64,000 nt of DNA, taken from assembly GCA_040752695.1 (NCBI GenBank), contig JBFMGO010000015.1:12022-76021 (forward strand), in the 5' to 3' direction. Below the pieces are notes generated by a model that was not told the DNA's origin, did not search any database, and saw only the letters and a list, made by a program, of their open reading frames with translations. Each line of letters begins with the position of its first letter. Positions within the stretch are counted from its first letter, which is position 1. Position numbers and translations under genes: made by a program. This DNA is from a bacterium (GTDB taxonomy: Bacteria; SZUA-182; DTGQ01). Shown piece after piece: positions 4,117 to 35,839 of this stretch.

Positions 4117-4144
4117 CGTCATTCCCGCGAAGGGGGGAATGACG
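4117..4144. repeat. Palindromic REP/dRS3-like element cgtcATTCCC-N8-GGGAATgacg
   Basis: Perfect inverted repeat cgtcattccc/gggaatgacg with an 8-nt core. Confidence 0.7.
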
Positions 4145-4390: not shown

Positions 4391-4395
4391 ATAAT

Positions 4396-6513: not shown

Positions 6514-6622
6514 AATCAGAGTGGTCAGGTCAGAGTGACTCGAAGTCGAGGGATGTGAGGTAAGGGGAATTTGAAATCAAGGAGATTTTAAGACAATTCA
6601 TTCTAGGGAAAGGAGCTGATGA

Positions 6623-6994
<372 letters not shown>

Positions 6995-6998
6995 GGCG

Positions 6999-7307
6999 AT
7001 GAAATTTTTTCTGGTTGGGGACAAAGAGACGGTCCTGGGCTTTTCTCTGGCCGGGGTAGAAGGGGTGGCAGCAGAGACGGACTCAGAAATTCTGAGCGCC
7101 CTTCGCAAGGCGGCCCGGCGCAGTGACATAGGCATTTGTCTGATCACGGAGAAACTGGCCGAGCGGGTGAGGCCGTTCCTGGACAAGATGCTGCTTCGCA
7201 AAAAAGGCGGGACACTGATTCTGGAGATTCCGGATCGCCTCGGCCCTTTGCCGCAAAGACGGTCGGTTGAGGATTTCGCCCTCTCGGCCCTGGGAATCAA
7301 GGTCTGA
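6999..7307 (+). CDS. atpF: V/A-type ATP synthase subunit F
   Basis: GDKETVLGFSLAGV, LILEIP, ALGIKV. Confidence 0.95.
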   Translation: MKFFLVGDKETVLGFSLAGVEGVAAETDSEILSALRKAARRSDIGICLITEKLAERVRPFLDKMLLRKKGGTLILEIPDRLGPLPQRRSVEDFALSALGIKV

Positions 7308-7490
7308 TGCAAGGTCTGATGCGGGGGGGGTATTGACAGGCAGAGGATCGGCAGAGGAAACGGTGTAACAGGATCGGCAGAGGATATGGTGTAACAGGGT
7401 CGGTCAGCGGAGGAAACATTGGTTTGGGTATCGTCAAGATGTGGATAATTCGGTAAGGGCACACACAACTTCGGTATTCGGTAAGGGTAG

Positions 7491-8138
7491 GTGATTATGT
7501 TAAGCAATAATGGAGAAATACTAGCCAGGGTAATCATGGGCGATGCGTTTCAGGAGGCTGAGGCGATTTTAGAGAAAGCGGAAAAGGAGGCGGTCTCCAT
7601 TCGCCAGGAATCGGTGCGGATGCAGGCAGAGATGAGGCGTCAGGCCGAGAGTGATCAGAATCAGTTGGACATATTCCTGGCCAAGGCCAAGATGATATCT
7701 CAGGCAGAGTTGCAGGCGAGGATGGAGCTCATTGATCAGAAGGAGGAGATTTTGCAGGGGGTACTGGATACTTTGCGGAAGGAGTTTTTCTCTTTGCCCG
7801 GCCATCCTGACTATCCTTCCATATTGATGCGGCTGACACTTCAGGGGCTGGCGTGGCTGGAGGGGGATGATTTCATCTGCCAGGTCAACAGCCGGGACCG
7901 CGTCTGGTTCACTGCTCCAGTGCTTGAGAGCATGAGTGCGGAGAGCAGGAAGAAGCTCTCTTTGGACGAGCAGGTGATTGATATTGAGGGCGGGGTAGTA
8001 ATTGTCCGCCGTGATGGCAGGCTTTTGTATGATAATTCCCTTGGTGCCATTTTCCAGCGCAAGGAGGAGGCCATGCGCTCTGCTGCTGCCAGGCAGTTTT
8101 TCAGGGATGAAGAGTCAGGGATGAAGAGTCAGGGATGA
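7491..8138 (+). CDS. atpE: V/A-type ATP synthase subunit E
   Basis: N-terminal coiled coil, GGVVI...YDNSL C-terminal motif. Confidence 0.88.
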   Translation: MIMLSNNGEILARVIMGDAFQEAEAILEKAEKEAVSIRQESVRMQAEMRRQAESDQNQLDIFLAKAKMISQAELQARMELIDQKEEILQGVLDTLRKEFFSLPGHPDYPSILMRLTLQGLAWLEGDDFICQVNSRDRVWFTAPVLESMSAESRKKLSLDEQVIDIEGGVVIVRRDGRLLYDNSLGAIFQRKEEAMRSAAARQFFRDEESGMKSQG

Positions 8139-8482
8139 AGGGCTTGATGCTGCACGGAGCAGGATGAAAGGCTTGATGCTGCACGGAGCAGGATGAAGGG
8201 CTTGATGCTGCACGGAGCAGGGGGGTGCTTGGGCGCATATAAGCGCACGGTGCTTGGGTGTACATAAGCGCATGGTGCTTGGGTGCACATAAGCGCATGG
8301 TGCTTGGGTGCACATAAGCGCACGGTGGCGGGCAGGGTACGATAAGAGCAGGAGGCAGAGGGCAGGGCTGGGCAAGGGCTTTAAGGTAAGGATAAAGGGC
8401 TGGGCAGGGCTTTAAGGTGAGGATAAAGGGCTGGGCAGGGCTTTAAGGTGAGGATAAAGAGCTGGGCAGGGCTTTAAGGTAA
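8103..8482 (+). repeat. Compound intergenic tandem-repeat block (about 14-bp x2-3, 30-bp x3, 25-bp x4, 31-bp x3-4)
   Basis: Units agggatgaagagtc; gggcttgatgctgcacggagcaggatgaa; gtgcttgggtgcacataagcgcatg; gggctgggcagggctttaaggtgaggataaa. Confidence 0.92.
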
Positions 8483-8540
8483 GGTAAAGGTAAGGACAAA
8501 GGGGCAGGACTCACAAAAGGACGGAGAGGTGTGAATAGCG

Positions 8541-10325
8541 ATGTCGAAGTTGTCGAAGGTAGTAGGAGTAGTGGATTGGATCAATGGGCCGGTGGTGAAG
8601 GCGGTTGAGATACATTCCGTAGAGATGATGGAGTTGGTGGAGATAGGCGAGGATCGGCTGATTGGGGAGATCATAGAGCTTGACGAGGACCGGGCCACCA
8701 TACAGGTGTATGAGAGCACCACCGGGTTAAAGCCAGGATCTCAGGTATATGGCACGGGGATACCGCTTTCGGTGGAGTTGGGGCCTGGGTTGATAGGCAA
8801 CATATATGACGGGATACAGCGGCCGTTGAAGAAGATCCACGAGCGGAGCGGAAATTTCATTGGCAAGGGGGTCAAGATATCGCCTCTTGACCGGCAGAGA
8901 GTGTGGCCATTTGTGCCGGTAGCCAAAGAGGGCGAGTATGTGGGGCCTGGGAGCGTATTGGGGCTTGTGCGGGAGACTCCGCTGTTTGAGCACCGGGTGT
9001 TAGTGCCGCCGCAGGTAGAGGGCAGGGTAGAGTACATCAAGAGGGAGGGTGAGTATGGGATAGACGATGCGGTAGCCGGACTTCGCACCCAGCAGGGAGT
9101 GATAGAGGTGAGCATGGTTCATCGCTGGCCGGTACGTCTGGCCAGGCCGTATTTACGCAGGCTGATGCCTGATGAGCCACTGATTACGGGCCAGCGGGTC
9201 ATCGACACCTTCTTTCCGATTGCCAAGGGGGGCACGGCCGGGATTCCGGGCGGGTTTGGCACGGGGAAAACCATCACCCAGCATCAGCTTTCCAAGTGGT
9301 GCGATGCGGACATAATCGTGTACATCGGCTGCGGTGAGCGGGGCAACGAGATGACGGGAGTATTGATGGATTTTCCCAAGCTGATGGATTTAAAGAGGGG
9401 TCGTCCCCTGCTCGAGCGGACCATTCTGATCGCCAACACCTCGGATATGCCCCTGGCGGCCAGGGAGGCCAGCATTTATACGGGCATCACCATTGCCGAG
9501 TATTTCAGGGACATGGGCTATGACGTAGCCCTCATGGCAGATTCGACATCGCGCTGGGCCGAGGCGCTGCGGGAGATATCGGGCAGGCTCGAGGAGATGC
9601 CCGCAGAGGAAGGCTTCCCTGCCTACCTTGCCACGCGGCTTGCCAAGTTCTACGAGCGTGCGGGCAGGGTGCAGACCTTCGGCGAGCGGACCGGATCGGT
9701 CAGCGCCATTTGTGCGGTGTCGCCGCCGGGCGGTGACTTTTCCGAGCCCGTCACCCAGCACACCAAGCGCTTTGTGCGCTCTTTTTGGGGATTGAACAAG
9801 GAGTTGGCCAGCGCCCGCTACTTTCCTGCCATCCATTACATGGAAAGCTACAGCGAGTACCTGGACTTTATCCAGAGCTGGTGGACCAAGGAAGTGGACT
9901 CAAACTGGAAGACGCTCAGGGATGAGGCCATGCAGGTCTTGCAGCAGGACTACAAACTGCAGCGAATCGTCAAGCTGATCGGCGAGGATGCCCTGCCCGA
10001 TGCCCAGAGGCTGGTCCTTGAGGGCGCGCGCATACTCAAGAACGCCTTCCTGCAGCAAAGCGCCTTCGACGAGGTGGATATGTACGCCGTACCCCGCAAG
10101 CAGTTCCTGATGCTCAAGGCCATCATGCACTTTTATCACCGCGCCCGGGATGTGATCAAAGCCCATATTCCGATCCTGCGCATCATGCAGCTTCCGGTCA
10201 TCAACGAGATCAACCGCATGAAGGAGAAAATACCAAACAATAAGTGCGAGCAGTTCGACCTTTTGCTGCAACAGATCGATACCTGCATGGATGAGCTGGA
10301 AAAGGAGAGCATGGCTATCCTGTAA
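8541..10325 (+). CDS. atpA: V/A-type ATP synthase catalytic subunit A
   Basis: PGGFGTGKT Walker [35 protein letters not shown]; no intein. Confidence 0.98.
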
Positions 10326-10374
10326 CCATGGCTATCCTGGAGGCATGGCTATCCTGGAGGCACGGCTATCCTGT
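10309..10374 (+). repeat. Four copies of ca(t/c)ggctatcctg spanning the atpA stop codon
   Basis: catggctatcctgtaac-catggctatcctggagg-catggctatcctggagg-cacggctatcctgtaaa. Confidence 0.85.
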
Positions 10375-10449
10375 AAACAAAAGAAGCGGTCAGCAGTAAT
10401 AATGATAAGGATATATAGCGAGAAGAGCGAGAAGAGAGGAGCAGCAAAA

Positions 10450-11901
10450 ATGGCAGCGCCGAGTAGTGCTAGTGCAAACAGTGTATTGGGAAAAGAGTAT
10501 GTGGGGGTCTCGAAAGTGGCCGGGCCTCTATTATTCATCGAAGGGATCAGCGGCATAGGGTATGACGAGGTGGTGGAAATACGCATGAAGAGCAATGAGC
10601 TGCGCCACGGACGGGTACTGATCACCAGCCGCTCCACAGCCCTGATCGAGGTATTTGAAGGTACCGGGGGTCTGACCATTTCCACCACCAGAGTGCGGTT
10701 TCAGGGAAAGCCCCTGCAGATTCCGGTCTCAACGGACATGCTGGGCAGAGTGTTCAACGGGCTTGGCATCCCCATCGACGGCGGGCCTTTGCCGATCTAC
10801 CAGGAAAAACGCGACATCAACGGCGCCCCGATCAATCCGGTGGTCAGGGACTACCCCGAGGACTTCATCCAGACGGGCATCTCCACCATAGACTGCATGA
10901 ATACCCTGGTGCGGGGACAGAAGCTGCCGATTTTCTCGGGAAGCGGCCTGCCCCACAACGAATTGGCCGCCCAGATCGTGCGCCAGGCCAGCGTCTGCGG
11001 CCGGAGCGAGCGCTTTGTGGTGGTCTTCGCAGCCATGGGAGTCAAAAACGATGTGGCCCAGATGTTTCGAAAAAGCTTCGAGGAAAGCGGGGTGCTCTCG
11101 CGGGTGGTCATGTTCCTGAACCTGGCCAACGATCCTTCCATCGAGCGGCTGGTGGCACCGCGCTCGGCCCTGACCATAGCCGAGTACCTGGCCTTCGAGC
11201 AGGGCATGCACGTTCTGGTCATCCTCACCGATATGACCAATTACTGCGAGGCCCTGCGGGAGATCTCCACCTCCAAGGGCGAGGTGCCGAGCCGAAAAGG
11301 CTACCCCGGCTACCTGTACAGCGATCTGGCCTCGATCTACGAGCGCGCGGGCCGCATCATAGGATGCCCGGGCTCCATCACCCAGATCCCCATCCTGACC
11401 ATGCCCAATGACGATATCACTCACCCCATCCCCGATCTGACCGGATACATCACCGAAGGCCAGATCGTGCTCGACCGCGAACTGGCTAAAAAGAATATCT
11501 ACCCCCCCATCAATGTGCTGCCCTGCCTGTCGCGGCTGATGAACGACGGCATCGGAGCGGCCAAAACCAGGGAGGACCACGCCAATATCTCGAACCAGCT
11601 CTACGCAGCCTACTCCTATGTGAAAAAGGTGGAAACCCTGGCCTCGATCATCGGAGAGAGCGAACTGTCCGACCGCGATAGACAGTACCTGGAGTTTGGC
11701 AGACAGTTCGAAGAAAATTTCGTGCGACAGGGCCAAAACGAGAACCGCTCCATCGTGAAGACCCTCGACCTGGCCTGGAAAACCGCCTCCTGCCTGCCCA
11801 AGGAAGAATTGATCAGGGTCTCGGAAGCCCAGATCCAAAAGTACTACCCCAAAAACGACACTCCCGACGACAGCCAGTGCAGCGAGGACGATACGGTATA
11901 A
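10450..11901 (+). CDS. atpB: V/A-type ATP synthase subunit B
   Basis: [49 protein letters not shown]; start moved to the ATG after the GAGGAG RBS. Confidence 0.98.
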
Positions 11902-22047: not shown

Positions 22048-22956
22048 ATGCGTCTATCCAAAGTGAAGTTTTTAGCTATTACGCTCTTTTGTATATCGGT
22101 TCTGTTTTGTATGCCCCTGAATGGACAGGCTTACTATGGTAGCTTGTATGGCAGTTATGGTTTGTATGGTGGTCTGTATGGTGGTCTGTACGGTGGTCTG
22201 TATGGCGGGCTCTATGGCGGCCTGTACGGCGGCAGCTATGGCCTCTATGGCGGGCTGTATGGCGGCCTGTACGGCAGCTATGGCTTGTATGGCGGTTTGT
22301 ATGGCAGCTATGGCTTGTATGGCGGTTTGTATGGCAGCTATGGCTTGTATGGCGGGCTATACGGCAGCTATGGCCTCTATGGCGGCCTGTACGGCGGCCT
22401 CTATGGCAGCTATGGCCTCTATGGCGGCCTGTACGGCGGCCTCTATGGCAGCTATGGCCTGTATGGTGGTCTATATGGTGGTCTGTATGGCGGGTTGTCG
22501 CGCTACCCGTTTGAGTCAGCATCAACACCACTGGTAGAGCCTGTACGCACTTCGGCTGCCCTGACAACACTTCTGGGCGGAGGAGGTGGAGGTTTGAGTC
22601 CAGCCGGAACCTGGAGTGGTACCTGGCTCAGCTATATCAGCCTCAAGGGTGGTATCTGCAACATGAACCTGCTCTACAACTCACTCACCAGAACGGTTTC
22701 AGGAACCGCCGGTTTGCTTCTGAATAAACTGATCCCGCTTCCCATCAATGTATCCGGCTTATACCTTGGGAGCCCCTTTACCCTGAGCGGCTCTTATCTT
22801 GATCCTGTATCTTTAGTTACCTATTATGAAGATTTGACCTGCACGCTGGTCTCTGCTTCCTTCATGACCGGCACGTATTTAATTCATGACGCTCTTTATC
22901 TCAAATCGGACGCTGGAGAATTTAACGTAAGCCTGGCTGTTGCTCCGGTCATATAA
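22048..22956 (+). CDS. Secreted Gly-Leu-Tyr repeat protein: signal peptide, about 34 tandem YG motifs (GLYG/SYG), C-terminal beta-rich domain
   Basis: AGGAGG RBS; Sec signal ending GQA; synonymous codon variation across repeats indicates protein-level selection; followed by a terminator. Confidence 0.85.
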   Translation: MRLSKVKFLAITLFCISVLFCMPLNGQAYYGSLYGSYGLYGGLYGGLYGGLYGGLYGGLYGGSYGLYGGLYGGLYGSYGLYGGLYGSYGLYGGLYGSYGLYGGLYGSYGLYGGLYGGLYGSYGLYGGLYGGLYGSYGLYGGLYGGLYGGLSRYPFESASTPLVEPVRTSAALTTLLGGGGGGLSPAGTWSGTWLSYISLKGGICNMNLLYNSLTRTVSGTAGLLLNKLIPLPINVSGLYLGSPFTLSGSYLDPVSLVTYYEDLTCTLVSASFMTGTYLIHDALYLKSDAGEFNVSLAVAPVI

Positions 22957-23040: not shown

Positions 23041-23218
23041 AAGCGGGCAGTGATTTGGGGTGAGGAGGGTGGAGGTGTTTTCAGGATATGCTTTATGAAG
23101 AGGATATCCTTCTTTTTCCTGTAGACGGTTCTGTTTTTTTTATGATAAATTAGCGATTTATGTAAGGGTTTACCTTTTGAATTCTCACACAAAAATCATA
23201 GGAAGGAGAGAGAGCGAT

Positions 23219-24340
23219 ATGCTTCAGAGAAAAAAATGGAGTGCTTTTGGACATATTCAAATAACTGGCCTTTTGTTGGCGATTTGGATTTCCCTGGCCC
23301 TGACCGGCTGCGGTACCGTGACTCAACAGGTCAAATCCTCGCTCGGATTTTATCCAGAGCAGGAACTGGCACAAGCTTTGACCCGCACGCCGGAGCAGTG
23401 GAAGACTGCCATGGGGCAGGCTGCTGCCGTAGATCCCAAAGTAACCGAGGGCCAGCGCCTGAATAAAGATCCTGCCCTCAACAAAAGGCTGCAAGCCATG
23501 GCGGACCGCTTACGGGCCGTTTCCCATGCACCTGAAATTCCGTTTCAGGTTAAGATTATCGAAAGCAAGCAGATCAACGCCTTCAACACGGGCGGGGAGC
23601 TTTTGTATGTTTATACCGGCCTCATTGATTATGTCAAGAGCGACGATGAACTGGCCGGTATTCTGGCTCATGAGATGGCTCATGGAATCGGTGCTCACTT
23701 GCAGAGAGAGCAAAAATCCATGTTTCTTCCGACTATTGGCGCAATCCTGGCTGACGTGGCTTTTCAGAACCAAACCGCGGACCAACTGATCGGTCTGACC
23801 AATCAGGCGATCTCCTCCGGGTACTCACGAAGGCATGAACGGGAGGCGGACATTCTGGCCGTTGTATATACCTATCGGGCAGGTTATAATCCTCTCAGCT
23901 TTGAAGAATTTTTCGAGAGGATGAGCCAAAAAGCCAGTCAGGTAAAGCAGGAGAAAGAGAAGGAGTTGCGCCAAAGCTATGCCAGCTTTCGGCAGACGGC
24001 TCAAAAGGTGAATCAGGAGAAGCAACGATACGCGACTTCTTACCACCGTTTCCAGGCTGATCCCGATTCTCCTGTGGCACGTCAGGAATTCCAGCAGGCT
24101 AAAAAGCAACTGGAGAAAAGCCAAAATCAATATGACAGCCAATCCCAGCAGTATCGCAAGGCTTATCAGAACTATGCCCAATCCATCAATGAGTTGTTTC
24201 CTATATTCCAATCTCATCCATCCGATCCGGAACGGATTGATATCATCACCAGGACGTTGAAATACTTAAAGAAGGAAATACCCCTTTCTCAGACACCTCC
24301 TTCTGTCCAGTACGTAATCGAAGCTATAGGGGAAATTTGA
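23219..24340 (+). CDS. M48 family zinc metalloprotease lipoprotein with a Gln/Lys-rich coiled-coil insertion
   Basis: Lipobox LTGC, INAF, HEMAH, YSRRHEREAD, SHPSDPER. Confidence 0.9.
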   Translation: MLQRKKWSAFGHIQITGLLLAIWISLALTGCGTVTQQVKSSLGFYPEQELAQALTRTPEQWKTAMGQAAAVDPKVTEGQRLNKDPALNKRLQAMADRLRAVSHAPEIPFQVKIIESKQINAFNTGGELLYVYTGLIDYVKSDDELAGILAHEMAHGIGAHLQREQKSMFLPTIGAILADVAFQNQTADQLIGLTNQAISSGYSRRHEREADILAVVYTYRAGYNPLSFEEFFERMSQKASQVKQEKEKELRQSYASFRQTAQKVNQEKQRYATSYHRFQADPDSPVARQEFQQAKKQLEKSQNQYDSQSQQYRKAYQNYAQSINELFPIFQSHPSDPERIDIITRTLKYLKKEIPLSQTPPSVQYVIEAIGEI

Positions 24341-24403: not shown

Positions 24404-24608
24404 TAGGGGATGATAAATGGGAGTGTTTAACTCCTTTATCAAGGGAGGGCAAATGGAAACTTATATATTCACTTTATTTTATTTTCAATTTATTTGCTGT
24501 TGAAAGCGTATTTGACCTTATAGACGTTGTTTTTGGATATTCATTACGAAAAATATCATAATTTTTATGAATAGGGATCACTGTGGATGAGCAGGGTCTT
24601 TTCACGGA

Positions 24609-24655
24609 CAGGCGAAGCCTTTGACATCTCCAGCAATGTCAAAGGCTTTCGCCTG
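24609..24655 (-). terminator. Long hairpin after the precursor gene
   Basis: caggcgaagcctttgacat...atgtcaaaggctttcgcctg. Confidence 0.65.
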
Positions 24656-24675
24656 ATATTCAATCTCCCTCCCCA

Positions 24676-25380
24676 TTAATAGGTAAGGGCGGAAGGCCAG
24701 GAAGCGGGCCAGGAAGTGGAAGAAGTCGTCGGCAGACTTATTCCGTAGAGAGCCCAGACGGTAGATCCAGGCGGTGTATAGGATGTATCAGGAAGAGTAG
24801 GTGCGGAGATCCCATACAAGGGGCCGAAAGCAGTAGTCGGGGGAGAATAGATTGTTTTTGGCGTAGGTATATTGACACCATAATAGGTAGTCGGGCTGGG
24901 GACTTGCGCGGCATAGAGAGGCACGATTTGCCCGGGAGAAGTATTTCCGGAATTACCGGGATAGGTGCCCCAGGGATAAGATCCAAAAAATCCTCCCAGG
25001 ATATTCCACAAGGGAGAAAGAAAGCTGTTGACGCTGCCCCATAGATTCGTGATTGGACTTGACCAGGGAGAGGTATAGGATGTGATGGGATTGTTCCAGA
25101 AAGGGAGCGTGTTGTAGGGAGAATAACTGCCAAATCCGTAGGGATTATATCCATAGCCATATCCGCCCCAGCCTCCCCACGGGTACCAGCTTGTGGGAGA
25201 AATGCGGTTATATTCATAAGGCAGTGGAAATTCATAATACTTTTTCAGTTCACTGATAGGTGTAGGCGCTCCATAATAAAGTCTGAATTCGCTGTCGGGT
25301 GTGCTATATCCACTGTATCCACTATACAGCGATTGAGTGCTTCGCCGGTTTTCCAGTTTTTCGAAAAAAATATGAGCCAT
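24676..25380 (-). CDS. Putative radical-SAM-modified precursor protein, Tyr/Pro/Ser/Gly/Trp-rich with 7 YG motifs
   Basis: Strong GGAAAGGAGGT RBS overlapping the rSAM stop region; last gene of the operon; motifs LYYGA, PYG, TYYGV, PLYGI, ALYGI (plus PLYAA). Confidence 0.75.
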   Translation of the reverse strand: MAHIFFEKLENRRSTQSLYSGYSGYSTPDSEFRLYYGAPTPISELKKYYEFPLPYEYNRISPTSWYPWGGWGGYGYGYNPYGFGSYSPYNTLPFWNNPITSYTSPWSSPITNLWGSVNSFLSPLWNILGGFFGSYPWGTYPGNSGNTSPGQIVPLYAAQVPSPTTYYGVNIPTPKTIYSPPTTAFGPLYGISAPTLPDTSYTPPGSTVWALYGISLPTTSSTSWPASWPSALTY

Positions 25381-25385
25381 AATGA

Positions 25386-26492
25386 TTACCTCCTTTCCTT
25401 TGCCATTTTTTCCACACGGTAAAGGCAATAAGGATTGTTGAAGATCGATCCTGAAAAGCAAAAAGCCGTGGACTTACAGCCTCCCCGGCAGACATGGTTA
25501 TACTCACATTCTTGGCAGTCACCTTCGAGCAGGCCGGTACGGAAGTTGCGATTGTAGGCGAAATTCCCCGGTTTGTTCCAGATGTCGGCCAAAGGCTCCT
25601 TGCGGATGTTACCTTCGATGAATTCGGGGCTGGAAGGCATGGACAGGCAGCCCTTAATGTCTCCGTTGGCTTCGACGCCAAGAGCCTGTATTCCGGCAAA
25701 GCAGCCGGTCCAGAAGGGAAGCCTGCCGGGTACGCTTTGCCGCAGAACTTCTTCATTGCGGCCAAAATAGCCGATGTTATCGGCAATATCAAGGCGGAGC
25801 CGGCTCTCCTGCCTGACCTTGAGTACAAATTGTTCGAGGAGGAAAAGGTCCTGCGGCTGAATGATGTAATCGGAGTGCTCGCATAGTCTCCCGCGCGGGA
25901 CGCCGATTTGCAGTTGCCAGATTTCCACACCCTCCTCCAGTGCCACCAGGTAGATCCGGTCAAGCTCAACCAGGTTGTCTTTGCAGACCGTAGTGACCAG
26001 GGCAGAAGAGACTCCGTTTTGGCGGAGCAGGGACAGGCTGTTGAGAACCCTTTGATATGCCCCTGTCTTTCGCCTAATTTTTTCATGGGTTTGCTGGAGG
26101 CCGTCCAGGCTTACGGCAACATTGGCAAGCTGAGCCTTTTTGATCCGCTCAACCAGGGCCTGATCCATAAGATAGCCGTTGGTAATGGCATTGACCTTGA
26201 CACCATACCCTTCAAGGCACAGGGCCAGATCATCCCAGTCTTCCCGCATGAAGGGCTCGCCACCCAAAAGGGTCAGGACTTCACAGCCCATCCGGCCTAA
26301 CTGATGGCATAGGTCCAGGGCTTCCTCATGGTCGAGTTCCTGGCCTCGCTCCGGCCCTGCTTCGGAGCCGCAATGAGCACAATTCATGTTACAGCGTAAG
26401 GTTAATTCCCAGACTACACTTCTGGGATAATACTTCATCTTATCCAGGTAATATCTGGGATTTTCCTTCAGTAGCTTGAGGATATAGCGCAT
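25386..26492 (-). CDS. Radical SAM/SPASM peptide maturase, PlpX/TIGR03913 (splicease)-like
   Basis: VWELTLRCNMNCAHCGS, GGEP, WQLQ, NIGYFG, FWTGCFAG..LGVEANGDIKGC, CxxC...CRGGC, NNPYC. Confidence 0.88.
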   Translation of the reverse strand: MRYILKLLKENPRYYLDKMKYYPRSVVWELTLRCNMNCAHCGSEAGPERGQELDHEEALDLCHQLGRMGCEVLTLLGGEPFMREDWDDLALCLEGYGVKVNAITNGYLMDQALVERIKKAQLANVAVSLDGLQQTHEKIRRKTGAYQRVLNSLSLLRQNGVSSALVTTVCKDNLVELDRIYLVALEEGVEIWQLQIGVPRGRLCEHSDYIIQPQDLFLLEQFVLKVRQESRLRLDIADNIGYFGRNEEVLRQSVPGRLPFWTGCFAGIQALGVEANGDIKGCLSMPSSPEFIEGNIRKEPLADIWNKPGNFAYNRNFRTGLLEGDCQECEYNHVCRGGCKSTAFCFSGSIFNNPYCLYRVEKMAKERR

Positions 26493-28566
26493 AAGAAATC
26501 TCCTGATAGACGTGTTCTGCCTCCGGAAGGAAACAGGGGTTTAACCCTTGAGCACGAAAAAGCCAGCAGCCTCCCCGGCACATTGGAAGGTGTTCACACT
26601 TTTGGCAGGCTTCGAAAAGCCCGTCCGGCACATTCTGTCGGAAAGCGGCAAATTTTTGTTCCCAGATTTCCTTGAGGAGATCGGTTCGGATATTTCCTTC
26701 TTTCTGGCCGGAAAACTTGGACATTGCACAGCCCAAAACATCCCCCTCGTGGGTGATGCAAAGGGTGTTCCATCCGCAGCCGCAAAAGAACGGCCCGCTC
26801 CGGATAAACGGCTCTAGCGGTCCGAGATAGCCGAAAGATTCCGATGGCTCTACAGGGAATCCGCGCTTTCTTGCCTCCAGCACGAAACGAAAGGCATTTT
26901 TGACAAGTTCGGAGCTGTTTCGTGCTGGTCTGCCATGCTGAAAGAGGAGTGGCTGAAGCTGAAGGCTCTGTGCTCCGGCACGAAAAACTTCCTCGGTCAA
27001 TTGCGGAAGCTCCATGATGTTTTCAGCAAGCAGGGTGGTGCTTACCGCAATGGAAGGGGCGCCTAGATCATGGAAAAATTCGATGGTTCGGATTCCCCGC
27101 TCAAAGGAGCCTTCATCGTTAGTTTCTCCCGTAGATGGCCGGTCAACACCACGCAGGCGGTTTTGTGTACTTTTAAAGCCATCGAGAGTGATGATCACAG
27201 AATCAAAGCGCGCCTGCTCCAGTGCCAGGAGGTTTTCTTCCGTGGCCTGGCCATTGGTAGTGAGCCCCACTTTCATTCCCCGCTGATGAGCGTGGCGGGC
27301 AATGGAAAAGATGTCGGGACGCAGGAGGGGCTCTCCGCCGGTAATAGAAAAGAATTCACATCCCATCGATGCAAGTTCATCCAGAGCTTTTTGGACTGCA
27401 TCCATACTCAGCTCCTTCGGACTGGCCTGGCTGGACGTGGTTTCGCAGTGAGCGCAGCGAAACTGGCAGCGGTCCGTGCTCAGCCATTGCACATACAGGG
27501 GCTGCAGCCGGCCGTCCCGCCACTCTTTTTGGTATTGAGTAAGCAGCATCTTATGCGGCGGGATCTGTTGGGATGCCTGCTGTGAAACCTGCTGAGATGA
27601 CTGCGGTGGAACCTGCCGGGATGCCTGCTGTGAAACCTGGCGAGGCCGGGGTTTCTGATTCCGTGAAGCGGAGTCATCCGGCACGGATTCATTCACAGAA
27701 GCCGGTGCTGTAGGTATTTCCTCAGGCAGGGGAGGCATACTACTCTCCACCTCCTGGATCGTTTTTTCCTGTTTATCGCTCTGAGGCTCATTTTTCTCTT
27801 TATGCAAAAATTCTTTAATTCCATCCGTAAAGGGGCCGACCAGGTCCAGGGGAAAGGGAAAAAGGATGGTGGAGCTTTTTTGGGTGGAGATTTGCCTCAG
27901 GGTCTGGAGATAGCGTAATTGAAGGCTTTGCGGATTGCCGGACAGAATCTGACCGGCTTTGGCCAGAGTTTGAGCTGCCTGAAACTCACCCTGTGCATCG
28001 ATCAGGAGCGCGCGCCTCTCCCTTTCGGTCTCCGCCTGTTTAGCCATGGCGCGCTTCATCTCTTCGGGCAGGGTAACTTCCTTGATTTCGACAATGGGAA
28101 TGGCGATTCCCCAGGGGGCTGTGGTAATAGTGATGATTTGCTGCAACCTTTGATTGATACTGGTCTGCTGACTGAGCAGGTCATCCAGCTCCACCTGGCC
28201 AAGGACACTGCGCAAAGTGGTCTGGGCGATCAGGAATGTGGACTGGTAGATGTTTTGAATGCCAACGACCGCTCTGGCCGGATCAGTGATATTGAAGTAA
28301 ACGACCGCATCCACCGTTACCGGAACATTATCTTTGGTCATGATGTCCTGGCGGGGAACATCTACGGATACCAGCCGTAAGTCGATCCTCTGCATCCGGT
28401 CAACCAGCGGTATCAGGAAAACCAATCCAGGCCCCTTGGTGCCTGCCAATTTTCCCAGCCGAAAGATGACTGCACGCTCATATTCTTTCAGTATCCTGAC
28501 AGCAGAGCAAACAAGGGCGGCCAAAGCCATGAGATAAAGAAAAGTCTTTAAATATTCCAACTGCAT
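26440..28566 (-). CDS. Fusion: N-terminal stomatin-like SPFH domain + Gln/Pro linker + radical SAM/SPASM domain
   Basis: SPFH: EYERAVIFRLG, TKDNVPVTVDAVVY, AQTTLRSVLG, LRYLQTL; rSAM: CQFRCAHC, TGGEPLLR, FCGCG...GC, CQKC...CRGGC; one uninterrupted frame. Confidence 0.88.
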   Translation of the reverse strand: MQLEYLKTFLYLMALAALVCSAVRILKEYERAVIFRLGKLAGTKGPGLVFLIPLVDRMQRIDLRLVSVDVPRQDIMTKDNVPVTVDAVVYFNITDPARAVVGIQNIYQSTFLIAQTTLRSVLGQVELDDLLSQQTSINQRLQQIITITTAPWGIAIPIVEIKEVTLPEEMKRAMAKQAETERERRALLIDAQGEFQAAQTLAKAGQILSGNPQSLQLRYLQTLRQISTQKSSTILFPFPLDLVGPFTDGIKEFLHKEKNEPQSDKQEKTIQEVESSMPPLPEEIPTAPASVNESVPDDSASRNQKPRPRQVSQQASRQVPPQSSQQVSQQASQQIPPHKMLLTQYQKEWRDGRLQPLYVQWLSTDRCQFRCAHCETTSSQASPKELSMDAVQKALDELASMGCEFFSITGGEPLLRPDIFSIARHAHQRGMKVGLTTNGQATEENLLALEQARFDSVIITLDGFKSTQNRLRGVDRPSTGETNDEGSFERGIRTIEFFHDLGAPSIAVSTTLLAENIMELPQLTEEVFRAGAQSLQLQPLLFQHGRPARNSSELVKNAFRFVLEARKRGFPVEPSESFGYLGPLEPFIRSGPFFCGCGWNTLCITHEGDVLGCAMSKFSGQKEGNIRTDLLKEIWEQKFAAFRQNVPDGLFEACQKCEHLPMCRGGCWLFRAQGLNPCFLPEAEHVYQEISYALYPQATEGKSQILPG

Positions 28567-28579
28567 AGGCATCTCCTCA

Positions 28580-29545
28580 TCAACGAAGGAAAGGAAGAAT
28601 AAACTTTCCCAGAATATTGGCAGCGAACCAGACAAGGCCCATTATGGAAAGGAGAGAAAAGATCAAGGAGAGCAACCCATACAGGGAAAGCCAGTGAAAT
28701 TCTCCCTTGACCAGGCGCTCCCGCCCCCTTTGCCGCAGGTTGACGGTTTTGGAAAGATCTGACAACAGCCAGTACCCATCTCCATTGACCATGGGGTTGA
28801 GAATAATGGTCCAGCGGGTGTATTGAAGGATCAATAAAGGGGTAACGTAATATTCCAGGGGAGGGGAATAGAGAACGAGAGCTACCAAAAGAGCGTTAAA
28901 AATCAGGTCTGCCAGAAGGCCGGCAGAATTAATGAGTAGTCTGACGTTTTGCGGCAGACACCAGGCCGGGTGAGTATCCATGTACACGGCCGGGAAAAAA
29001 AGGAGGTGGGTAAAACCCAGCCGGGGTGAAAAATAGGATCTGGCTACCAGGTAATGCCCCAGTTCATGCAGAATAATGGGTAAAAGACCGAAAAGACCGA
29101 TCACCAACCCTTCGTACCCGCGATTCAGGGTGACTGTGCGGGCCAGGGTTCGGAAATATTCGACCTGGACAGCGGCAAGCAGTAGGAAAAGAAAGATAAA
29201 GGGCAAAAGATGAATGTCGTCTCTCTGCCGTCCCATGGTGATTTTCCCCTGGCGGGCAGGAACGATTGCACCTTCCTTCTCAAGACTCACGATAAGGGAG
29301 CGCAATTCCTGCTGCTCGACTTTGTACTTTTGGGCAGCGCCGCTTACCGACACCCCGCCGTTCAGCTCCAGAAGAATCCGCAGCGTCAGCCAGTCTACGT
29401 GAAAAAGTCCCCGGTTGGGTGTGCGTATCCAGAGGGTTCCGTCATCCAGGGGGCCATACTCGAAACGGAAACAGAGGCGGTAATTTTCCTGCTCTGCTGA
29501 ATGGGGCGAAAGGGGAGGAGAGGTTTGGGGCGAAGAATTCTTCAT
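28580..29545 (-). CDS. M50 (site-2) family membrane metalloprotease with N-terminal PqqD/RRE-like domain
   Basis: LHELGH, NPMVNGDGY (NPxxxxDG), several TM helices; N-terminus three strands plus helices ending LEKEGAI; GGAGG RBS before the Met at 29545. Confidence 0.82.
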   Translation of the reverse strand: MKNSSPQTSPPLSPHSAEQENYRLCFRFEYGPLDDGTLWIRTPNRGLFHVDWLTLRILLELNGGVSVSGAAQKYKVEQQELRSLIVSLEKEGAIVPARQGKITMGRQRDDIHLLPFIFLFLLLAAVQVEYFRTLARTVTLNRGYEGLVIGLFGLLPIILHELGHYLVARSYFSPRLGFTHLLFFPAVYMDTHPAWCLPQNVRLLINSAGLLADLIFNALLVALVLYSPPLEYYVTPLLILQYTRWTIILNPMVNGDGYWLLSDLSKTVNLRQRGRERLVKGEFHWLSLYGLLSLIFSLLSIMGLVWFAANILGKFILPFLR

Positions 29546-29811
29546 CTCCTTATCCTCCTTCAATAGGGAAGTTTGATTGTCATGTCGAAATCTCAGTAAA
29601 CCTAAGGCTGCCACAAGAAACGTACAATACACAACAAGTGATACCGGTAATACATGCACATCAATACTTTTACATCGGGGGGATTTTTTGCCGGATATCT
29701 ATGCATCTACAGTAGACGACGGTTTTGAGAGAAAAACATTATGGAGAAAATTCCTTACGGAAGCAATTCCTGCCGGAAAAATTATCCCGATCCTGCCATT
29801 CTCCTTTGTTA

Positions 29812-30586: not shown

Positions 30587-31741
30587 TTATTTTCCTGTTT
30601 TATCCTTTTTGTGCTTATGGCTGCTGCCGCCGTGTTCCTGTTCACAGGTACAGGAGCTGCAACCGGCCCGCTCCAAAGAAGAAGGACGAGTCATCCTTGC
30701 CCAGCATCGGCCCAATCCCTCCTGGATATGCCCGATGGGGCCGGTACAGCCGTATTTGCAGACTGATCCGTCCGGCATGATAGTGCACAGATGACTGTCC
30801 CTGGAAAGAATTTCATTGCTGCTGTGGATGCTTTCTCCAAAGGCTAATTTTAAACAGGGAGCGATCCGCCCGGCAGTGAGCCCATAAAAACGGCATTTTT
30901 CTTCAGCGTTGTTGTCCCTTGGAACATTGATTCCCCACTCCTTCACTCCCATCTTATGGAGGAGAAAGGAGAGTTGCTCGATTTCATCAAGATTATCCTG
31001 GTGAAGAGTCGTAGCCACGGAGACCACGAACCCCTCACTGCGGCACAGACCAATAGAATCGAGAGCCTGCTCGAAGGTTCCTTCCCCCCGGAGGCGTTCA
31101 TGCCCCTTTTTCAGGCCATCCAGGCTGATTCGTACTTCCTGAATCCCCTTGAGAAGACGAAGCACCTCTAAAGTGACCGGCGTGTCGATGATCTGGATTA
31201 TCTTTCGAAGCTTCATGCTGCTCATAAGTTCCAGGATTTGTTCTCTATCGGGGTGGAGCAGCGGCTGACCGGAAATGATTACCTTAAGGCCCTGGAGGTG
31301 ATAAAATTCGATCAATAATGTTTGGATATCAGCCGGTGACAGGTCCTGTAGCCGGGGTACATCAAGGTTGCAGTGGCTGGACTGGAAGCTTCGTCTTGAA
31401 GTGATCTTAAGGTCCAGATAGCGTAAGGATGGAGAAAACAAAAGTACAGGCTCCATGGGCCTGGGCTGAGCGTCGGTCCGCAGCTCCGGGTGCAGTTTCA
31501 GGATTCCTTCTTGCAGGCAAAAACGAAAAAATTCGGGCTCTGGCTTGAGCTGATCGATCCTTCGACTTCCATCGCATTGAATTAAAAATGCAAAGGCTGC
31601 ATTATCGATTTCATAAAGTACGTCTTTCTGGATATTATAGAGATGAGGTCTCTCCAAAAGGCGGATAGTGCAGTCCGGAGAGAGAGATACGTACCTTTCC
31701 TGTTTTCTTAAGATATCTTTGCTCTTTGTTGTGTCAGCCAT
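30587..31741 (-). CDS. Degenerate radical SAM/SPASM-like protein with N-terminal RRE-like domain; CxxxCxxC motif lost
   Basis: LRYLDLKITSRRSFQSSHC in place of CxxxCxxC, SGQP for GGEP, ISLDG..HERLRGEGTF retained; ORF intact. Confidence 0.7.
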   Translation of the reverse strand: MADTTKSKDILRKQERYVSLSPDCTIRLLERPHLYNIQKDVLYEIDNAAFAFLIQCDGSRRIDQLKPEPEFFRFCLQEGILKLHPELRTDAQPRPMEPVLLFSPSLRYLDLKITSRRSFQSSHCNLDVPRLQDLSPADIQTLLIEFYHLQGLKVIISGQPLLHPDREQILELMSSMKLRKIIQIIDTPVTLEVLRLLKGIQEVRISLDGLKKGHERLRGEGTFEQALDSIGLCRSEGFVVSVATTLHQDNLDEIEQLSFLLHKMGVKEWGINVPRDNNAEEKCRFYGLTAGRIAPCLKLAFGESIHSSNEILSRDSHLCTIMPDGSVCKYGCTGPIGHIQEGLGRCWARMTRPSSLERAGCSSCTCEQEHGGSSHKHKKDKTGK

Positions 31742-32172
31742 GGTATGTACTCCTTACCTATTCGGGCATCACAGGCCGCTTTTGTCCGGCCGGAAAGTTC
31801 CTATGATGCCCGATAAAAAATCCCTTTATGGCATGGCTTACGAAAAGCCATCTCACTAGCCGAACTTTTGAGCACATTTTTATTTTCCCGATTCCTCATT
31901 TCCTCAACCTCCGTTCTTACGTTAACCTGTTCAGGTTTCTCTTCCAGATTTCTTTCTTTTTCTGTTTATTACTCGGCCCTCACCTTGAGAGGGAGCTACC
32001 CAAAGAGCAGGACAAGAGTTCTCTTCTGAATGCTTTGATTGCAACGGCGTGTTCAGGATGGAGTTCATTTTTTCATCATTGACTTTTCTGCAACATTTTG
32101 TCATTATGTTATATAAATACATCTGACCTACAAATTCATGTCATTTATCATGCCCCCAGCATAAGGAAGGTT

Positions 32173-33222
32173 ATGAAAAAAATAGTCGCCATAATGATGA
32201 GAGGCTTCCTTTCCGCAATAATAATTCTGTTCGTTGTTCATAGTGCAGCGGCAAAGATCACTTCTGATTTAGAGAAGAAGCCACCTAAAGAGAATACCAA
32301 AGAGAAGAGTGCTCCCTCTTCGAAGGATGATTCCGCCCAGGCAAAGGAGCATTTTCAAAAAGGCGTGGAATATTCCCGATCTGATAAAGCAGATCTGGCT
32401 ATCCTTGAATACCGCAAGGCATTGGAATTTGATCCTAACTTATCCCTGGCCTATGTGAATATCGGCATGAGCTATATTCAAAAGAAAGATTTTGATACTG
32501 CCGTGCAGGAATTGAAAAAGGCAATCGGAAGGGATCCGAAATTAAAAATTGCTCGTTTTAACCTCTGGTGGGCCTATCGGCAAAAGGGCAAGTACGATGA
32601 GGGAATCAGCGAGCTCAAAAAGGTCCTCGAGATAGATCCAAATGATGGTAATGCTTACCAAAACCTGGGAGACAGCTATCTGTCCGACAAGAAGGTGTTT
32701 CCTGATGCTATACGTGCCTATGCGAAAGGACTGGCTCTCAATAAGGAGAGCGTTGCACTCCGCCAGAAACTTGGCAAGGCGTACGAGCTCAACGGTGAGT
32801 GGAGTAAAGCTGTCGAGCAGTTTCAACAGGCTATAGATTTGAACAGGACTAATCTTTATAGTTATTTATTTCTTTATATTACACTTATGAAGACCAAGGA
32901 ACATGCCAAGGCACAAGAGGTTATCAAGAAGGGCCTTGCTGTCTTTCAGAGCGATCCCCTTCTGGCCGATTCGTCTTACAAAGATATCGCCCACCTTTTA
33001 GAGTATCTCTTGGGAAAATACCCTGAGAAGGATCTGTTGTCCATCAAAAACCCCATTATTGCATGCCAGGCCAGTTATTACATCGGGATGAATTATCTGT
33101 TTCAGAACAAGAGCAAAGAGGCTATCCAACATTTAGAAAAAGCGATTAATGACCAGATAAATTTCATTTCCGAATATGAATATGCAAAGATCGAGTTAGG
33201 GCTGATCCAGGTACAAAAATAA
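32173..33222 (+). CDS. Exported TPR protein with an NlpI-like C-terminus
   Basis: Signal peptide, several TPRs (YRKALEFDP, LKKVLEIDP), C-terminal CQASYYIG...EYEYAKIEL. Confidence 0.85.
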   Translation: MKKIVAIMMRGFLSAIIILFVVHSAAAKITSDLEKKPPKENTKEKSAPSSKDDSAQAKEHFQKGVEYSRSDKADLAILEYRKALEFDPNLSLAYVNIGMSYIQKKDFDTAVQELKKAIGRDPKLKIARFNLWWAYRQKGKYDEGISELKKVLEIDPNDGNAYQNLGDSYLSDKKVFPDAIRAYAKGLALNKESVALRQKLGKAYELNGEWSKAVEQFQQAIDLNRTNLYSYLFLYITLMKTKEHAKAQEVIKKGLAVFQSDPLLADSSYKDIAHLLEYLLGKYPEKDLLSIKNPIIACQASYYIGMNYLFQNKSKEAIQHLEKAINDQINFISEYEYAKIELGLIQVQK

Positions 33223-33493
33223 TACTGATAACATCGCCCTTTCCTTCCGATTTATAAATATCCAGAGGGAAAAGACTGACCATATGCCGAAAATCTGCCT
33301 TGAGGCAGGCTTTTAAGGGATATTCTCTCTGGGAAGAGGGAAGATTCGGAAAAATTGAAGCAGGGCTTGACAACCACCTGGACTTTCAAATAAGATGATC
33401 TCGACTAAAAGATCATCTTAATAGACAAAGAATGCGTACCTTGACATCCTTGGGGTGTAGGGAAAATACCCTGGATTGAAGGAGGAAAAGAAG

Positions 33494-33940
33494 ATGTTTG
33501 GCATAGGGACCGGAGAGCTTCTTATTATCCTTGTGGTAGCCCTGATCATTATCGGGCCAAACAAACTGCCGGAGTTAGCCAGAGTACTGGGCAGGGGTCT
33601 TGCGGAATTCAGAAAGGCCGCCGATGATCTGAAATATTCCGTATCGAAGGAAATGCATATTGAGGAGGAGAAACGCAAACTGGTGGATATCCAAAGCAGT
33701 CAGGTAATTAAGGAGACGGACAGTCAAGCAGAGAATAAAACGGAGGGTGTACAGACTGAAGGCAGATCTTCAGAGCCGGCGGCAGGAAATCCTGGTGAGC
33801 CAGGAGACGCTGGTGAGCACGTACATGGAGTTGGACACGTACATGGAGTTGAGTCAGTAAATCACTATGCGCCTGTGAAACCAACCGATGAGAAAGGAGA
33901 TAAACCCGAGGATGCTGAAAAACCAGAAGATATCCTTTGA
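33494..33940 (+). CDS. tatB: Twin-arginine translocase TatA/TatB subunit
   Basis: [30 protein letters not shown]; next to tatC. Confidence 0.88.
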
Positions 33941-34673
33941 TGATAAACTTCCCGTTACGCAGCACCTGGCTGAGATTCGTCATCGGCTGATTATTGTCCT
34001 CATTGTAGTGGCGGTTTTTTTTGCCATAGTCTATACCTTCTCAGAATATATCCTGGCCTTTATCAAAGGCCCTCTTCAGGATAGTGCGTGCGAATTTATC
34101 TTCACCTCTCCTACGGAAGTTTTTTACGCACATGTAAAGATGTCGTTTTTCGTTGCCATAGCTCTTTCAGCTCCCCTCATTTTTTATCAGATCTGGGCGT
34201 TTATCGCGCCTGGACTCCATCAAAGGGAAAAACAATACACTTTTCCCGTTATCATCTTTACCTCGGTATTTTTTATCATCGGCCTGATCTTTGGTTCTCT
34301 GGTTATCGTGCCGTATGGCATGCGATTTTTACTGACTTATAAGGTTTCGCCTGAATTGGTGTCGGCAAAAATCAAAATAAGTGAATATCTCGATTTTTAT
34401 GGCCTGACCGTATTAATCAACGGGGTTATTTTCGAGTTGCCATTTGTCGTTTTATTCCTTACCAAAGTTGGTCTGCTTACACCGGACATGCTGACCAGAA
34501 ATCATAAATGGGCTATTCTCGTCATTTTTATTGTCTCCGCGATTCTTACGCCTCCGGATATATTCTCCCAGTTTCTCATGGCTATTCCATTAGTCATTTT
34601 GTATGAAATCAGCATCGTAGGAAGCAAGCTTGTCCACTGGCAAAAACGAAAGTCGAGCGCAAGCGAAGCTTAG
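33912..34673 (+). CDS. tatC: Twin-arginine translocase TatC
   Basis: [36 protein letters not shown]. Confidence 0.96.
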
Positions 34674-34750
34674 CCCGGCAGGCAAATCCTTTACGGAATT
34701 GACATACTGTTTGCATCAATAACCTGAAGAAAAAGAGAGGAAGTCTTGTT

Positions 34751-35839
34751 ATGAGTCACAAAATTACCCTGATTCCCGGAGATGGCATTGGCCCGGAGAT
34801 CAGCCAGGCTACCAGGATGGTCCTGGAAGCGACCGGGGTTTCTTTCGATTGGGAAGTCGTCCATGCCGGAGCCGAGGTGATGGACCGATACGGCACACCG
34901 CTGCCGAATGAGGTTTTGGAATCCATCCGCAGGAATAAGGTGGCCATCAAAGGACCGATCACGACTCCGGTCGGGAGCGGTTTTCGCAGTGTAAACGTTG
35001 CCCTTCGCAAGGAGTTGAATTTATATGCGTGCTTGCGCCCCTGCAAGACCTACCCCGGTGTCCGGTCCAAATATCAGGATATCGATCTGGTCATTGTCCG
35101 GGAAAATACCGAGGATTTATATGCAGGGATCGAGTTTGAACAGGGCAGCCCGGATACCCTTAAGCTTATCCAGCTTGTCAATCAGGCTAAAGGGCTCAGT
35201 ATCAGTGAAGATTCGGGAATCAGCCTTAAAAATATTTCGGTCAGGGCCACGGAGAGAATCGTGCATTATGCCTTTTTGTATGCACGGGAAAACAATCGCC
35301 GGAAAGTGACCATTATCCATAAGGCCAATATTCTTAAGTACTCGGATGGACTTTTCCTAAAGGTTGGCCGCCAGGTGGCGGAGCATTATCCGGACATCGA
35401 AGCGGAAGACCGCATTGTGGATAACATCTGTATGCAACTGGTCCAGAAGCCGCACCTGTATGATGTGCTCGTTTTGCCTAACCTCTATGGGGATATCATC
35501 TCCGACCTTGGAGCAGGACTCGTCGGCGGACTGGGTCTGTCGCCAGGGGCCAATATCGGGGATGGAGTGGCTGTTTTCGAGCCTACACACGGCAGCGCAC
35601 CAAAATATAAAGGCATGAACAAGGTCAACCCCATGGCCATGATGCTTTCGGGGGTTTTGATGCTGCGCTACCTGAAAGAGCTGGATGCTGCGGACCGGCT
35701 GGAAAAGGCTATTGCCGCCGTGATTCGAAAAGGAGAGAGGGTAACCTATGATTTATTACCCGATCTGGATATGCAAAAGGCGGCATCCACCTCTGATGTG
35801 GCTGAGGCAGTAATCCAGGTCCTTGCATCGTTATCGTGA
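34751..35839 (+). CDS. icd: Isocitrate dehydrogenase (NAD-type, isocitrate/isopropylmalate family)
   Basis: [53 protein letters not shown]; adjacent to mdh. Confidence 0.88.

Follow-up and report, generated by a model that had tools for sequence, protein, structure and literature searches.

What does a membrane scaffold gain when an enzyme is built into its own polypeptide? The question is raised by a gene in a 64,000-nucleotide stretch of bacterial DNA (the window; GenBank assembly GCA_040752695.1, contig JBFMGO010000015.1, positions 12,022 to 76,021 of the forward strand), which encodes a protein of 708 amino acids (aa) on the minus strand at 26440..28566. Its N-terminal half is a stomatin-like SPFH domain and its C-terminal half a radical SAM (rSAM) enzyme with a SPASM domain, the two being joined by a linker. 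To our knowledge, the role of SPFH rings for the proteins they surround is still open, and few clients of bacterial stomatins are known. Based on the analyses below, it seems probable that the fusion is a membrane-anchored peptide maturase in an operon resembling those for RiPPs (peptides synthesised by ribosomes and modified after translation), in which a stomatin ring would tether many maturase domains beside a leader-binding protease.

A stomatin fused to a radical SAM/SPASM enzyme

The open reading frame (ORF) of the fusion extends from a TTG codon (26440..28635, 731 aa), and starting it at the ATG at 28566 gives the 708-aa form, which agrees with the starts of relatives in an alignment of 19 fusion proteins. 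Residue numbers of Pfam matches refer to the 731-aa form and all others to the 708-aa form. Pfam placed Band_7 (PF01145) at 48-217 (E 8e-36, 124 bits against a cut-off of 23.6), Radical_SAM (PF04055) at 386-546 (E 3e-21) and SPASM (PF13186) at 618-681 (E 5e-9). A first-pass annotation, made by a model from the sequence of the window, had described a complete stomatin-like domain, an in-frame linker of Gln, Pro and Ser repeats and an rSAM with intact CxxxCxxC and SPASM cysteines, and each of these features was borne out.

The stomatin part begins with a membrane segment at residues 5-27 (28486..28554), the only hydrophobic segment that a hydropathy scan found in it, followed by the SPFH core with its wall helix, cap helix and ring strand at residues 25-243 (27838..28494), as delimited by Band_7, the stomatin match and the structural model. 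When the protein was compared with the sequences of solved structures, the chains of human stomatin from the 16-chain cage entries matched residues 15-243 at E 1e-63, ahead of Pyrococcus stomatin (1e-49) and E. coli QmcA (2e-35), and HflK reached only 2e-10. In the partial text available for PMC12344292, the elements of the human 16-mer ring are a wall helix, a cap helix and an apex strand that ends in two prolines. The matched stretch of the fusion spans the LQLRYLQTL helix and the following strand with P237 and P239, all of them invariant in the 19-sequence alignment, and judged by its sequence the SPFH part retains all elements that build stomatin rings.

The linker that follows (residues ~244-336, 27559..27837) is of low complexity and holds no conserved sequence; among the 19 relatives it ranges in length from a few tens of residues to over 200. 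Its QVSQQAS-type repeat corresponds to a 24-nt tandem repeat of 3.1 copies at 27565-27639, detected with Tandem Repeats Finder. Beyond it lies the rSAM core with SPASM (26533..27480; CxxxCxxC at 27445-27468, SPASM at 26533-26784), a C-terminal part that matches PqqE, SkfB and CteB among solved structures by sequence. The triad C367/C371/C374, the GGEP motif and the eight SPASM-region cysteines (C595, C603, C613, C654, C657, C663, C667 and C678) are invariant in all 19 fusion sequences, in which the mean column identity is 54%.

An AlphaFold2 (AF2) model built on the 19 sequences has a mean predicted local distance difference test (pLDDT) of 66. It contains a helix at 2-28, the SPFH core, helices at 168-208 and 212-226 and a confident rSAM/SPASM domain at 337-694, and residues 223-334 are unstructured, with pLDDT below 50. 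Foldseek matched the SPFH half to human stomatin (9z7u_B, 1e-18) and the rSAM half to SkfB (1e-12), CteB (4e-12) and SuiB (9e-12), and also to anSME and PqqE; the values for CteB, SuiB, SkfB and PqqE span 1e-12 to 3e-11. The fold class of the enzyme is thus that of peptide maturases. None of the named NCBIfam rSAM maturase families (TIGR04133, TIGR04103, mycofactocin MftC, StsB, PqqE and others) was reached at its cut-off by the fusion or by the second rSAM enzyme of the operon; the best model for the fusion was TIGR04133, at 120 bits against a cut-off of 425.

Because no family model is reached at cut-off, the chemistry of the enzyme is left open, and an enzyme tethered to a membrane-microdomain scaffold might act on a membrane lipid or membrane protein inside the SPFH ring rather than on the precursor encoded nearby. 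We regard this as very improbable. The closest folds are peptide or protein maturases (SkfB, CteB, SuiB, anSME and PqqE), the synteny with the precursor is conserved, and both the unfused sister paralogues and more distant relatives adjoin ORFs with the leader or the Tyr-Gly (YG) motif described below.

Is the fusion itself genuine? Among the 120 SPFH relatives listed, 18 others are full-length or near-full-length Band_7 plus Radical_SAM (with or without SPASM) proteins of 619-884 aa, 54-75% identical to ours and drawn from NCBI, JGI, ENA and Logan assemblies, and Radical_SAM is confined to this fusion family (P0001-P0021). Of the 20 species genomes of the host's small phylum, 11 contain the fused rSAM at E<=1e-50, and all 11 belong to one order; counted by family, it occurs in 3/5 genomes of f1, 6/6 of f2, 1/1 of f3 and 0/8 of the other families. 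A further search with the rSAM domain among 1.84 billion representative proteins gave 33,482 relatives, of which we inspected the best 150 and domain-scanned 12. Seven of these 150 had a match starting beyond residue 300. Band_7 was present only in P0018, and the other six (P0186, P0200, P0218, P0230, P0271 and P0274) are tandem rSAMs or glycosyltransferase fusions. Where members of the fusion family carry a database name, it is only 'SPFH domain-containing protein', 'radical SAM protein' or 'hypothetical protein'.

By maximum likelihood, all 19 fused rSAM domains group together in a single clade (100/99), which fits one fusion event. The sister group (100/98) consists of unfused paralogues of 356-405 aa, and these adjoin precursors with the same leader. 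The first-pass annotation had held that the fusion would fall if close relatives always had two separate, unlinked genes; what we found is that the relatives within the order are fused, and that in the one distant relative found to be split the genes lie side by side.

The fusion is not an assembly artefact. We consider it extremely unlikely that it arose in gene calling, is a decaying pseudogene or belongs to a viperin-like anti-phage system. The linker does hold a tandem repeat and PADLOC pVip models do match the rSAM core (3e-17), but the frame is open in all 19 independent sequences, both domains are strongly conserved, the cysteines are invariant and the fusion recurs in 11/20 genomes. 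A look for sequencing runs that cover 24600-29700 gave none, of DNA or of RNA. The pVip matches span only ~115-135 of ~260 profile positions, which is the generic rSAM core, and no other protein of the module matches PADLOC; we therefore rejected the defence role.

Operon, precursor and a probable leader-binding domain

The fusion stands in a compact operon on the minus strand whose order is a HExxH protease with a probable RiPP recognition element (RRE), termed the RRE-protease below, the fusion, a second rSAM/SPASM enzyme (rSAM2) and a precursor, of which the family's operons have one or two. Of these, rSAM2, the precursor and the RRE fold were absent from the first-pass annotation, as were a paralogous cassette in the host genome and an unfused version in another phylum that are described below. 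Assigned by Pfam, rSAM2 (25386..26492, minus strand, 368 aa) overlaps the 3' end of the fusion by 53 nt. It matches the NCBIfam model of nif11-class maturase 3 at 1e-84, but with 284 bits against a cut-off of 725. The precursor ORF starts 5 nt past the rSAM2 stop, with a strong ribosome-binding site, AAGGAGG, 8 nt ahead of its ATG. We followed the operon across related loci by tblastn and motif scan within the available DNA. In all 13 loci whose upstream DNA is available, the gene directly upstream of the fusion encodes a full-length RRE-protease; rSAM2 follows directly downstream in 10/13, and a leader-bearing precursor is present in 10/13. The link to a membrane protease drawn in the first-pass annotation is thereby supported. 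No NfeD gene adjoins the fusion and the only one in the host genome is on another contig (C54), so that the usual NfeD partner is absent from the locus, as had been noted.

The precursor-like protein (24676..25380, minus strand, 234 aa) was recognised by its ribosome-binding site, leader alignment, composition and motif enrichment. It consists of a conserved leader of ~19 residues (25324-25380) and a core rich in Tyr, Trp, Phe, Gly, Ser and Pro with six Y[GA]x(2-3)P motifs, and it is without a signal peptide and without a Pfam, NCBIfam or PADLOC family. The leader has the form M-x-HIFFE-x-LE-x-R-x-STQ, with ten positions invariant in 14/14 precursor ORFs of related loci, while the cores diverge. 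Across these loci the cores are 150-240 aa long, 13-23% aromatic, rich in Gly, Ser and Pro and poor in charge, with 0-3 cysteines and conserved inner motifs. YG[IVAP] occurs 3-6 times in each of the nine full-size precursors of fusion modules, compared to 0.3-1.2 expected from shuffles. That the operon ends in long precursors with several such motifs fits the earlier suggestion of a substrate modified at multiple sites.

Two observations extend the precursor family. In the host's phylum, clusters of the unfused paralogues (L191, L192, L193 and L186) contain an rSAM, a precursor and a second rSAM of 345-357 aa; their precursors hold up to 18 SPW repeats, and those of L186, L191 and L192 end in a conserved charged tail that precursors of the fusion modules are without. 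The host genome also contains an orphan third precursor of 152 aa with the same leader (C106:12034-12492, minus strand), with no rSAM gene nearby.

Directly upstream of the fusion, an intramembrane HExxH (M50-like) metalloprotease of 321 aa with an N-terminal RRE-like domain is encoded at 28580..29545 (minus strand). Its likely start is the ATG at 29545 (the ORF list has a GTG at 29659), and its stop lies 13 nt ahead of the fusion ATG. HExGH and NPxVxGDGYW are invariant in 12/12 protease sequences, and hydrophobic segments lie at 108-135, 203-230 and 283-320. Peptidase M50 (site-2 protease) is defined, as we take it, by HExxH in a membrane helix together with a third-ligand motif of the NxxPxxxxDG type. 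The first-pass annotation had named this gene an M50 protease. A HExxH membrane protease is indeed directly upstream, but the Pfam M50 match (PF02163) is weak (E 4e-4, 20 bits) and below the cut-off of 27.2. NCBIfam models of YydH/LiaK and of daptide HExxH proteins matched at 3e-11 (NF058609, 43 vs 225 bits) and 7e-11 (NF041824, 42 vs 300 bits).

The N-terminal domain of the protease (residues ~20-100, 29246..29488, minus strand) folds in the AF2 model into three strands followed by three helices, with pLDDT of 66-87. In a fold search of 48,161 chains, its best match was a lasso-peptide B1 protein with bound leader (6jx3_B, Z 9.0, root-mean-square deviation 2.4, 74/85 aligned), followed by TigE (Z 7.8), TbiB1 (7.5), ThcOx (7.2), PqqD (7.1) and CteB (6.2), all of them RiPP recognition elements. 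On the basis of this modelled fold, the domain is likely an RRE. Neither the fusion nor rSAM2 has room for one, as CteB aligns with them only from its residue 105 and SkfB from its residue 113.

Precursors of 150-260 aa are far above the usual RiPP precursor length, and the operon could instead mature a structural, protein-sized product, such as a cross-linked Tyr-rich material of the envelope or matrix, with the scaffold serving envelope assembly rather than the making of a diffusible peptide. Long, aromatic and charge-poor cores with conserved inner motifs would suit such a product, as would the secreted GLYGG-repeat protein and M48 peptidase that adjoin the operon here and in L181 (the M48 peptidase also in L185). 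On the whole we find this doubtful, given that the division into leader and core, the RRE and the candidate leader protease are typical of RiPP pathways, that the precursor is without a signal peptide, and that a split version of the system adjoins an RND (resistance-nodulation-division) efflux system that suits a small product.

A proposed ring of maturases beside a protease

How might these parts work together? We favour the reading that the SPFH module assembles at the membrane, on its cytoplasmic side, as a ring or cage. The basic residues after the N-terminal segment of the fusion, and the position of the RRE ahead of the first membrane segment of the protease, would fit a cytoplasmic location of both. 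In a first step, the cytoplasmic RRE of the protease would bind the conserved leader. The stomatin ring would then form around or beside the protease, keeping the tethered rSAM domains near the bound precursor; SPFH rings associate with FtsH, with NfeD proteins and with channels. Both rSAM enzymes would next modify the repeated Tyr-Gly motifs of the core by radical chemistry, most likely C-C or C-O cross-links or epimerisation. Because the cores hold almost no cysteine, their sequences exclude thioether links. Lastly, the protease would cut off the leader at the membrane.

Since the chain leaves the ring at the apex, after the ring strand, each subunit would present one rSAM domain on a flexible tether at the cytoplasmic apex. 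By a rough estimate, sixteen 42-kDa rSAM domains are too large for the interior of a stomatin-size cage and should lie outside it. Tethering the maturase to a ring at the protease would join the enzyme with its bound substrate and couple modification to the removal of the leader. The first-pass annotation had suggested that rSAM domains arrayed in this way could also link modification to export or shield their Fe-S clusters.

Evidence that the stomatin belongs to the pathway comes from outside the host's phylum. Within the protease family there is a second branch (42-49% identity), and one of its members is on an Elusimicrobiota contig (L198) with the order rSAM2-like gene, unknown gene, stand-alone stomatin on the opposite strand, precursor, rSAM/SPASM, RRE-protease and then OEP, HlyD and AcrB, which are the outer-membrane factor, membrane-fusion protein and AcrB-type pump of an RND system. 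The stomatin (270 aa) is 61% identical to the fused SPFH part and divergently adjacent to the precursor, which has 174 aa, a related leader and nine YG[IVAP] motifs. The rSAM/SPASM enzyme shares 44% identity with the fused domain and branches immediately outside the group made up of fused domains and paralogues (0.967), and the RRE-protease is 46% identical to ours. That the same parts adjoin in one phylum and are fused in another is a classic sign of a functional link, and this gene arrangement therefore suggests one between the stomatin and the other parts of the pathway.

A paralogous cassette lies in the host genome on contig C18 at 31113-35434 (5114-9435 of locus L197). Its fusion is 73-84% identical, its precursor has 99 aa and the same leader, and an rSAM2 is present; a deletion has cut its protease to the RRE domain, with tblastn covering residues 29-151 only. 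An S8 subtilase lies downstream of the cassette and a multihaem cytochrome upstream.

The partnership of stomatin and protease can also be read without an array of enzymes. The SPFH part might mainly regulate or anchor the M50-like protease, as HflK/C does for FtsH, and so gate leader cleavage, in which case fusion to the rSAM would only secure co-expression and membrane location. SPFH and protease do travel together, with a full protease upstream in every one of the 13 loci and both present at L198, where the genes are split; eight loci from other phyla, although they encode related rSAMs, have neither SPFH nor protease in the available DNA; and pairs of SPFH proteins and proteases are established (HflK/C-FtsH and the QmcA-YbbJ entries). 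We nevertheless judge this account unlikely. The C18 cassette retains the fusion even though its protease is without a membrane domain, and the ring elements are fully conserved, so that assembly would bring about an array in any case, be it the function under selection or not.

Several observations weigh against a ring of tethered maturases that serves a leader-binding protease. The same C18 cassette, with its fusion intact while the protease is without a membrane domain, means that the SPFH part is not strictly dependent on an adjoining protease. Nor, judging from the gene set, is tethering required for every enzyme of the pathway, as rSAM2 carries no anchor and no RRE. Given that precursors of 150-260 aa exceed the usual RiPP length, what is made may be a modified protein instead of a small peptide. 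In the available DNA of three of the 13 fusion loci (L182, L188 and L185) there is no precursor, and the operon in the window has no exporter. A stomatin-linked locus without fusion turned up just once. In another eight loci that encode related rSAMs, from Omnitrophota, Planctomycetota, Nitrospirota and archaeal bins, there is no SPFH gene and no RRE-protease in the available DNA, several of the contigs being short, and by this distribution the stomatin link seems tied to the protease-bearing module.

The case for the RRE is likewise uneven. The AF2 model of the protease is poor outside this domain (mean pLDDT 51.8). Foldseek gave no match for the protease model at E<=0.001, its top rows being PqqD, McbBCD, TbiB1, lasso B1 and TigE at E above 1. 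For the N-terminal domain there was no Pfam match at E<=10 and no PqqD family by profiles, and a profile search of PDB sequences returned only a weak winged-helix match (E 0.22). A predicted complex of the RRE with the leader scored 0.32, compared to 0.02 for the best control, which is weak support: the pass mark was reached by 58/80 solved complexes and 2/110 mismatched pairs, and at scores of 0.60 or below it was reached by only 7/80 solved complexes and by both of the passing mismatches. The runs agreed in at least 77% of contacts, with a partner pLDDT of at least 47. Because RRE-leader complexes have already been solved, the pass may reflect likeness to these rather than binding.

If a ring of tethered maturases does form, one can tentatively go a step further. 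The fusion would possibly be the first SPFH ring with catalytic domains of its own, a cage 'maturasome' in which a dozen or more rSAM domains round the RRE-protease carry out multi-site processing of protein-sized, Tyr/Trp-rich precursors before leader cleavage and release. If true, the split version in the other phylum would show that stand-alone bacterial stomatins can scaffold RiPP maturation.

Some of the eight rSAM loci without a stomatin contain small YG-motif ORFs just upstream of the rSAM. On a contig from an archaeal metagenome-assembled genome (L214, 6024-6354), two small ORFs upstream of a related rSAM each have a membrane segment and an LYGV or KYGPPP end, and the Tyr-Gly motif therefore appears to accompany this rSAM clade outside the SPFH-linked module as well. 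In one family of the host's order (L187, L188, L189 and L190), a third, shorter rSAM of ~301 aa lies a few genes from the fusion.

Around the operon in the window, a 384-aa protein at 30587-31741 (minus strand) is assigned by Pfam to the radical SAM fold (3e-10, the match starting at profile position 23) and is without the CxxxCxxC triad. Its N-terminal ~100 residues look RRE-like by eye, and it is unmatched in the 14 related loci compared. We considered this degenerate rSAM and an endonuclease III, both upstream of the operon, as members of the module and rejected them, since neither is conserved: the endonuclease recurs only in L181 and the degenerate rSAM nowhere. The GLYGG-repeat protein mentioned above (22048-22956, plus strand) is a secreted protein of 302 aa that contains ~30 GLYGG/SYGLYGG repeats (with tandem repeats at 22158-22491) together with a C-terminal domain that is conserved, and is followed by the M48 lipoprotein-type peptidase at 23177-24340 (plus strand). 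L181, where both recur, is the closest relative. The repeats have an aromatic Tyr-Gly theme in common with the precursors. A V/A-type ATPase operon (subunits C/AC39, I, E, A and B) occupies 2833-11901 (plus strand), and the remainder of the scanned window is housekeeping (RecO, Era, TatA/TatC, isocitrate and malate dehydrogenases, NDK and FeoB), so that the module lies among core genes.

Significance and comparison with known systems

A stomatin covalently joined to an enzyme, with a likely substrate, a likely leader-binding domain and a protease in the same operon, makes a defined and expressible test of an SPFH ring as a reaction scaffold, and the fused and split forms together offer a direct experimental handle on the role of bacterial stomatin rings. 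For natural products, the operon is an uncharacterised rSAM pathway with long, aromatic-rich and nearly cysteine-free precursors, repeated Tyr-Gly motifs and a probable RRE on the protease instead of the maturase. This significance is reduced by a host range that is small and uncultivated, and by the inferred nature of the ring, the chemistry and the product. Our literature search returned no description of a fusion between SPFH/stomatin and radical SAM/SPASM domains, and in the partial text available for PMC7159879 the two terms stand unconnected.

With the stomatin-type SPFH rings (the human 16-mer, E. coli QmcA-YbbJ and Pyrococcus PH1511), the fusion has in common the membrane segment, SPFH core, wall and cap helices and two-proline strand. 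Unlike in these, its C-terminus runs on into a variable linker and a 370-aa enzyme domain, and no NfeD gene is adjacent. As in HflK/C-FtsH and other SPFH-protease assemblies, an SPFH protein is here encoded with a membrane metalloprotease, beside which it probably works, and the pairing is conserved in 13/13 loci. The partner differs, however: in place of an AAA+ protease there is a small intramembrane HExxH protease of M50-like type that bears a probable RRE.

The RRE-dependent rSAM/SPASM maturases CteB, SuiB, SkfB and PqqE (with PqqD) resemble the fusion in their rSAM and SPASM/twitch domains, in the leader-bearing precursor and in the probable RRE fold in the cluster. In those systems the RRE is part of the rSAM or a free PqqD-like protein, whereas here it is on the protease (except for the RRE-only remnant of the C18 cassette) and the N-terminus of the rSAM carries the SPFH scaffold. 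The epipeptide (YydFGHIJ/LiaK) and daptide pathways also have an intramembrane HExxH protease in an rSAM or RiPP pathway, where it is used as the leader protease. They differ from our operon in that its protease scores far below the cut-offs of their models, its precursors are 5-10 times longer and an SPFH fusion is present.

A further comparison is with the radical SAM cyclophane synthases and triceptides; in the partial text available for PMC11499958 the enzymes are described as rSAM/SPASM proteins by which aromatic residues are cross-linked at short motifs that recur. The cores here are similarly aromatic-rich, with repeated YG[IVAP], or SPW in the unfused clusters, but the motif is a different one and no membership is shown at the sequence level. 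Set beside all of these systems, the operon is an rSAM pathway of the RiPP type with an unprecedented scaffold fusion, a probable RRE borne by the protease and unusually long precursors.

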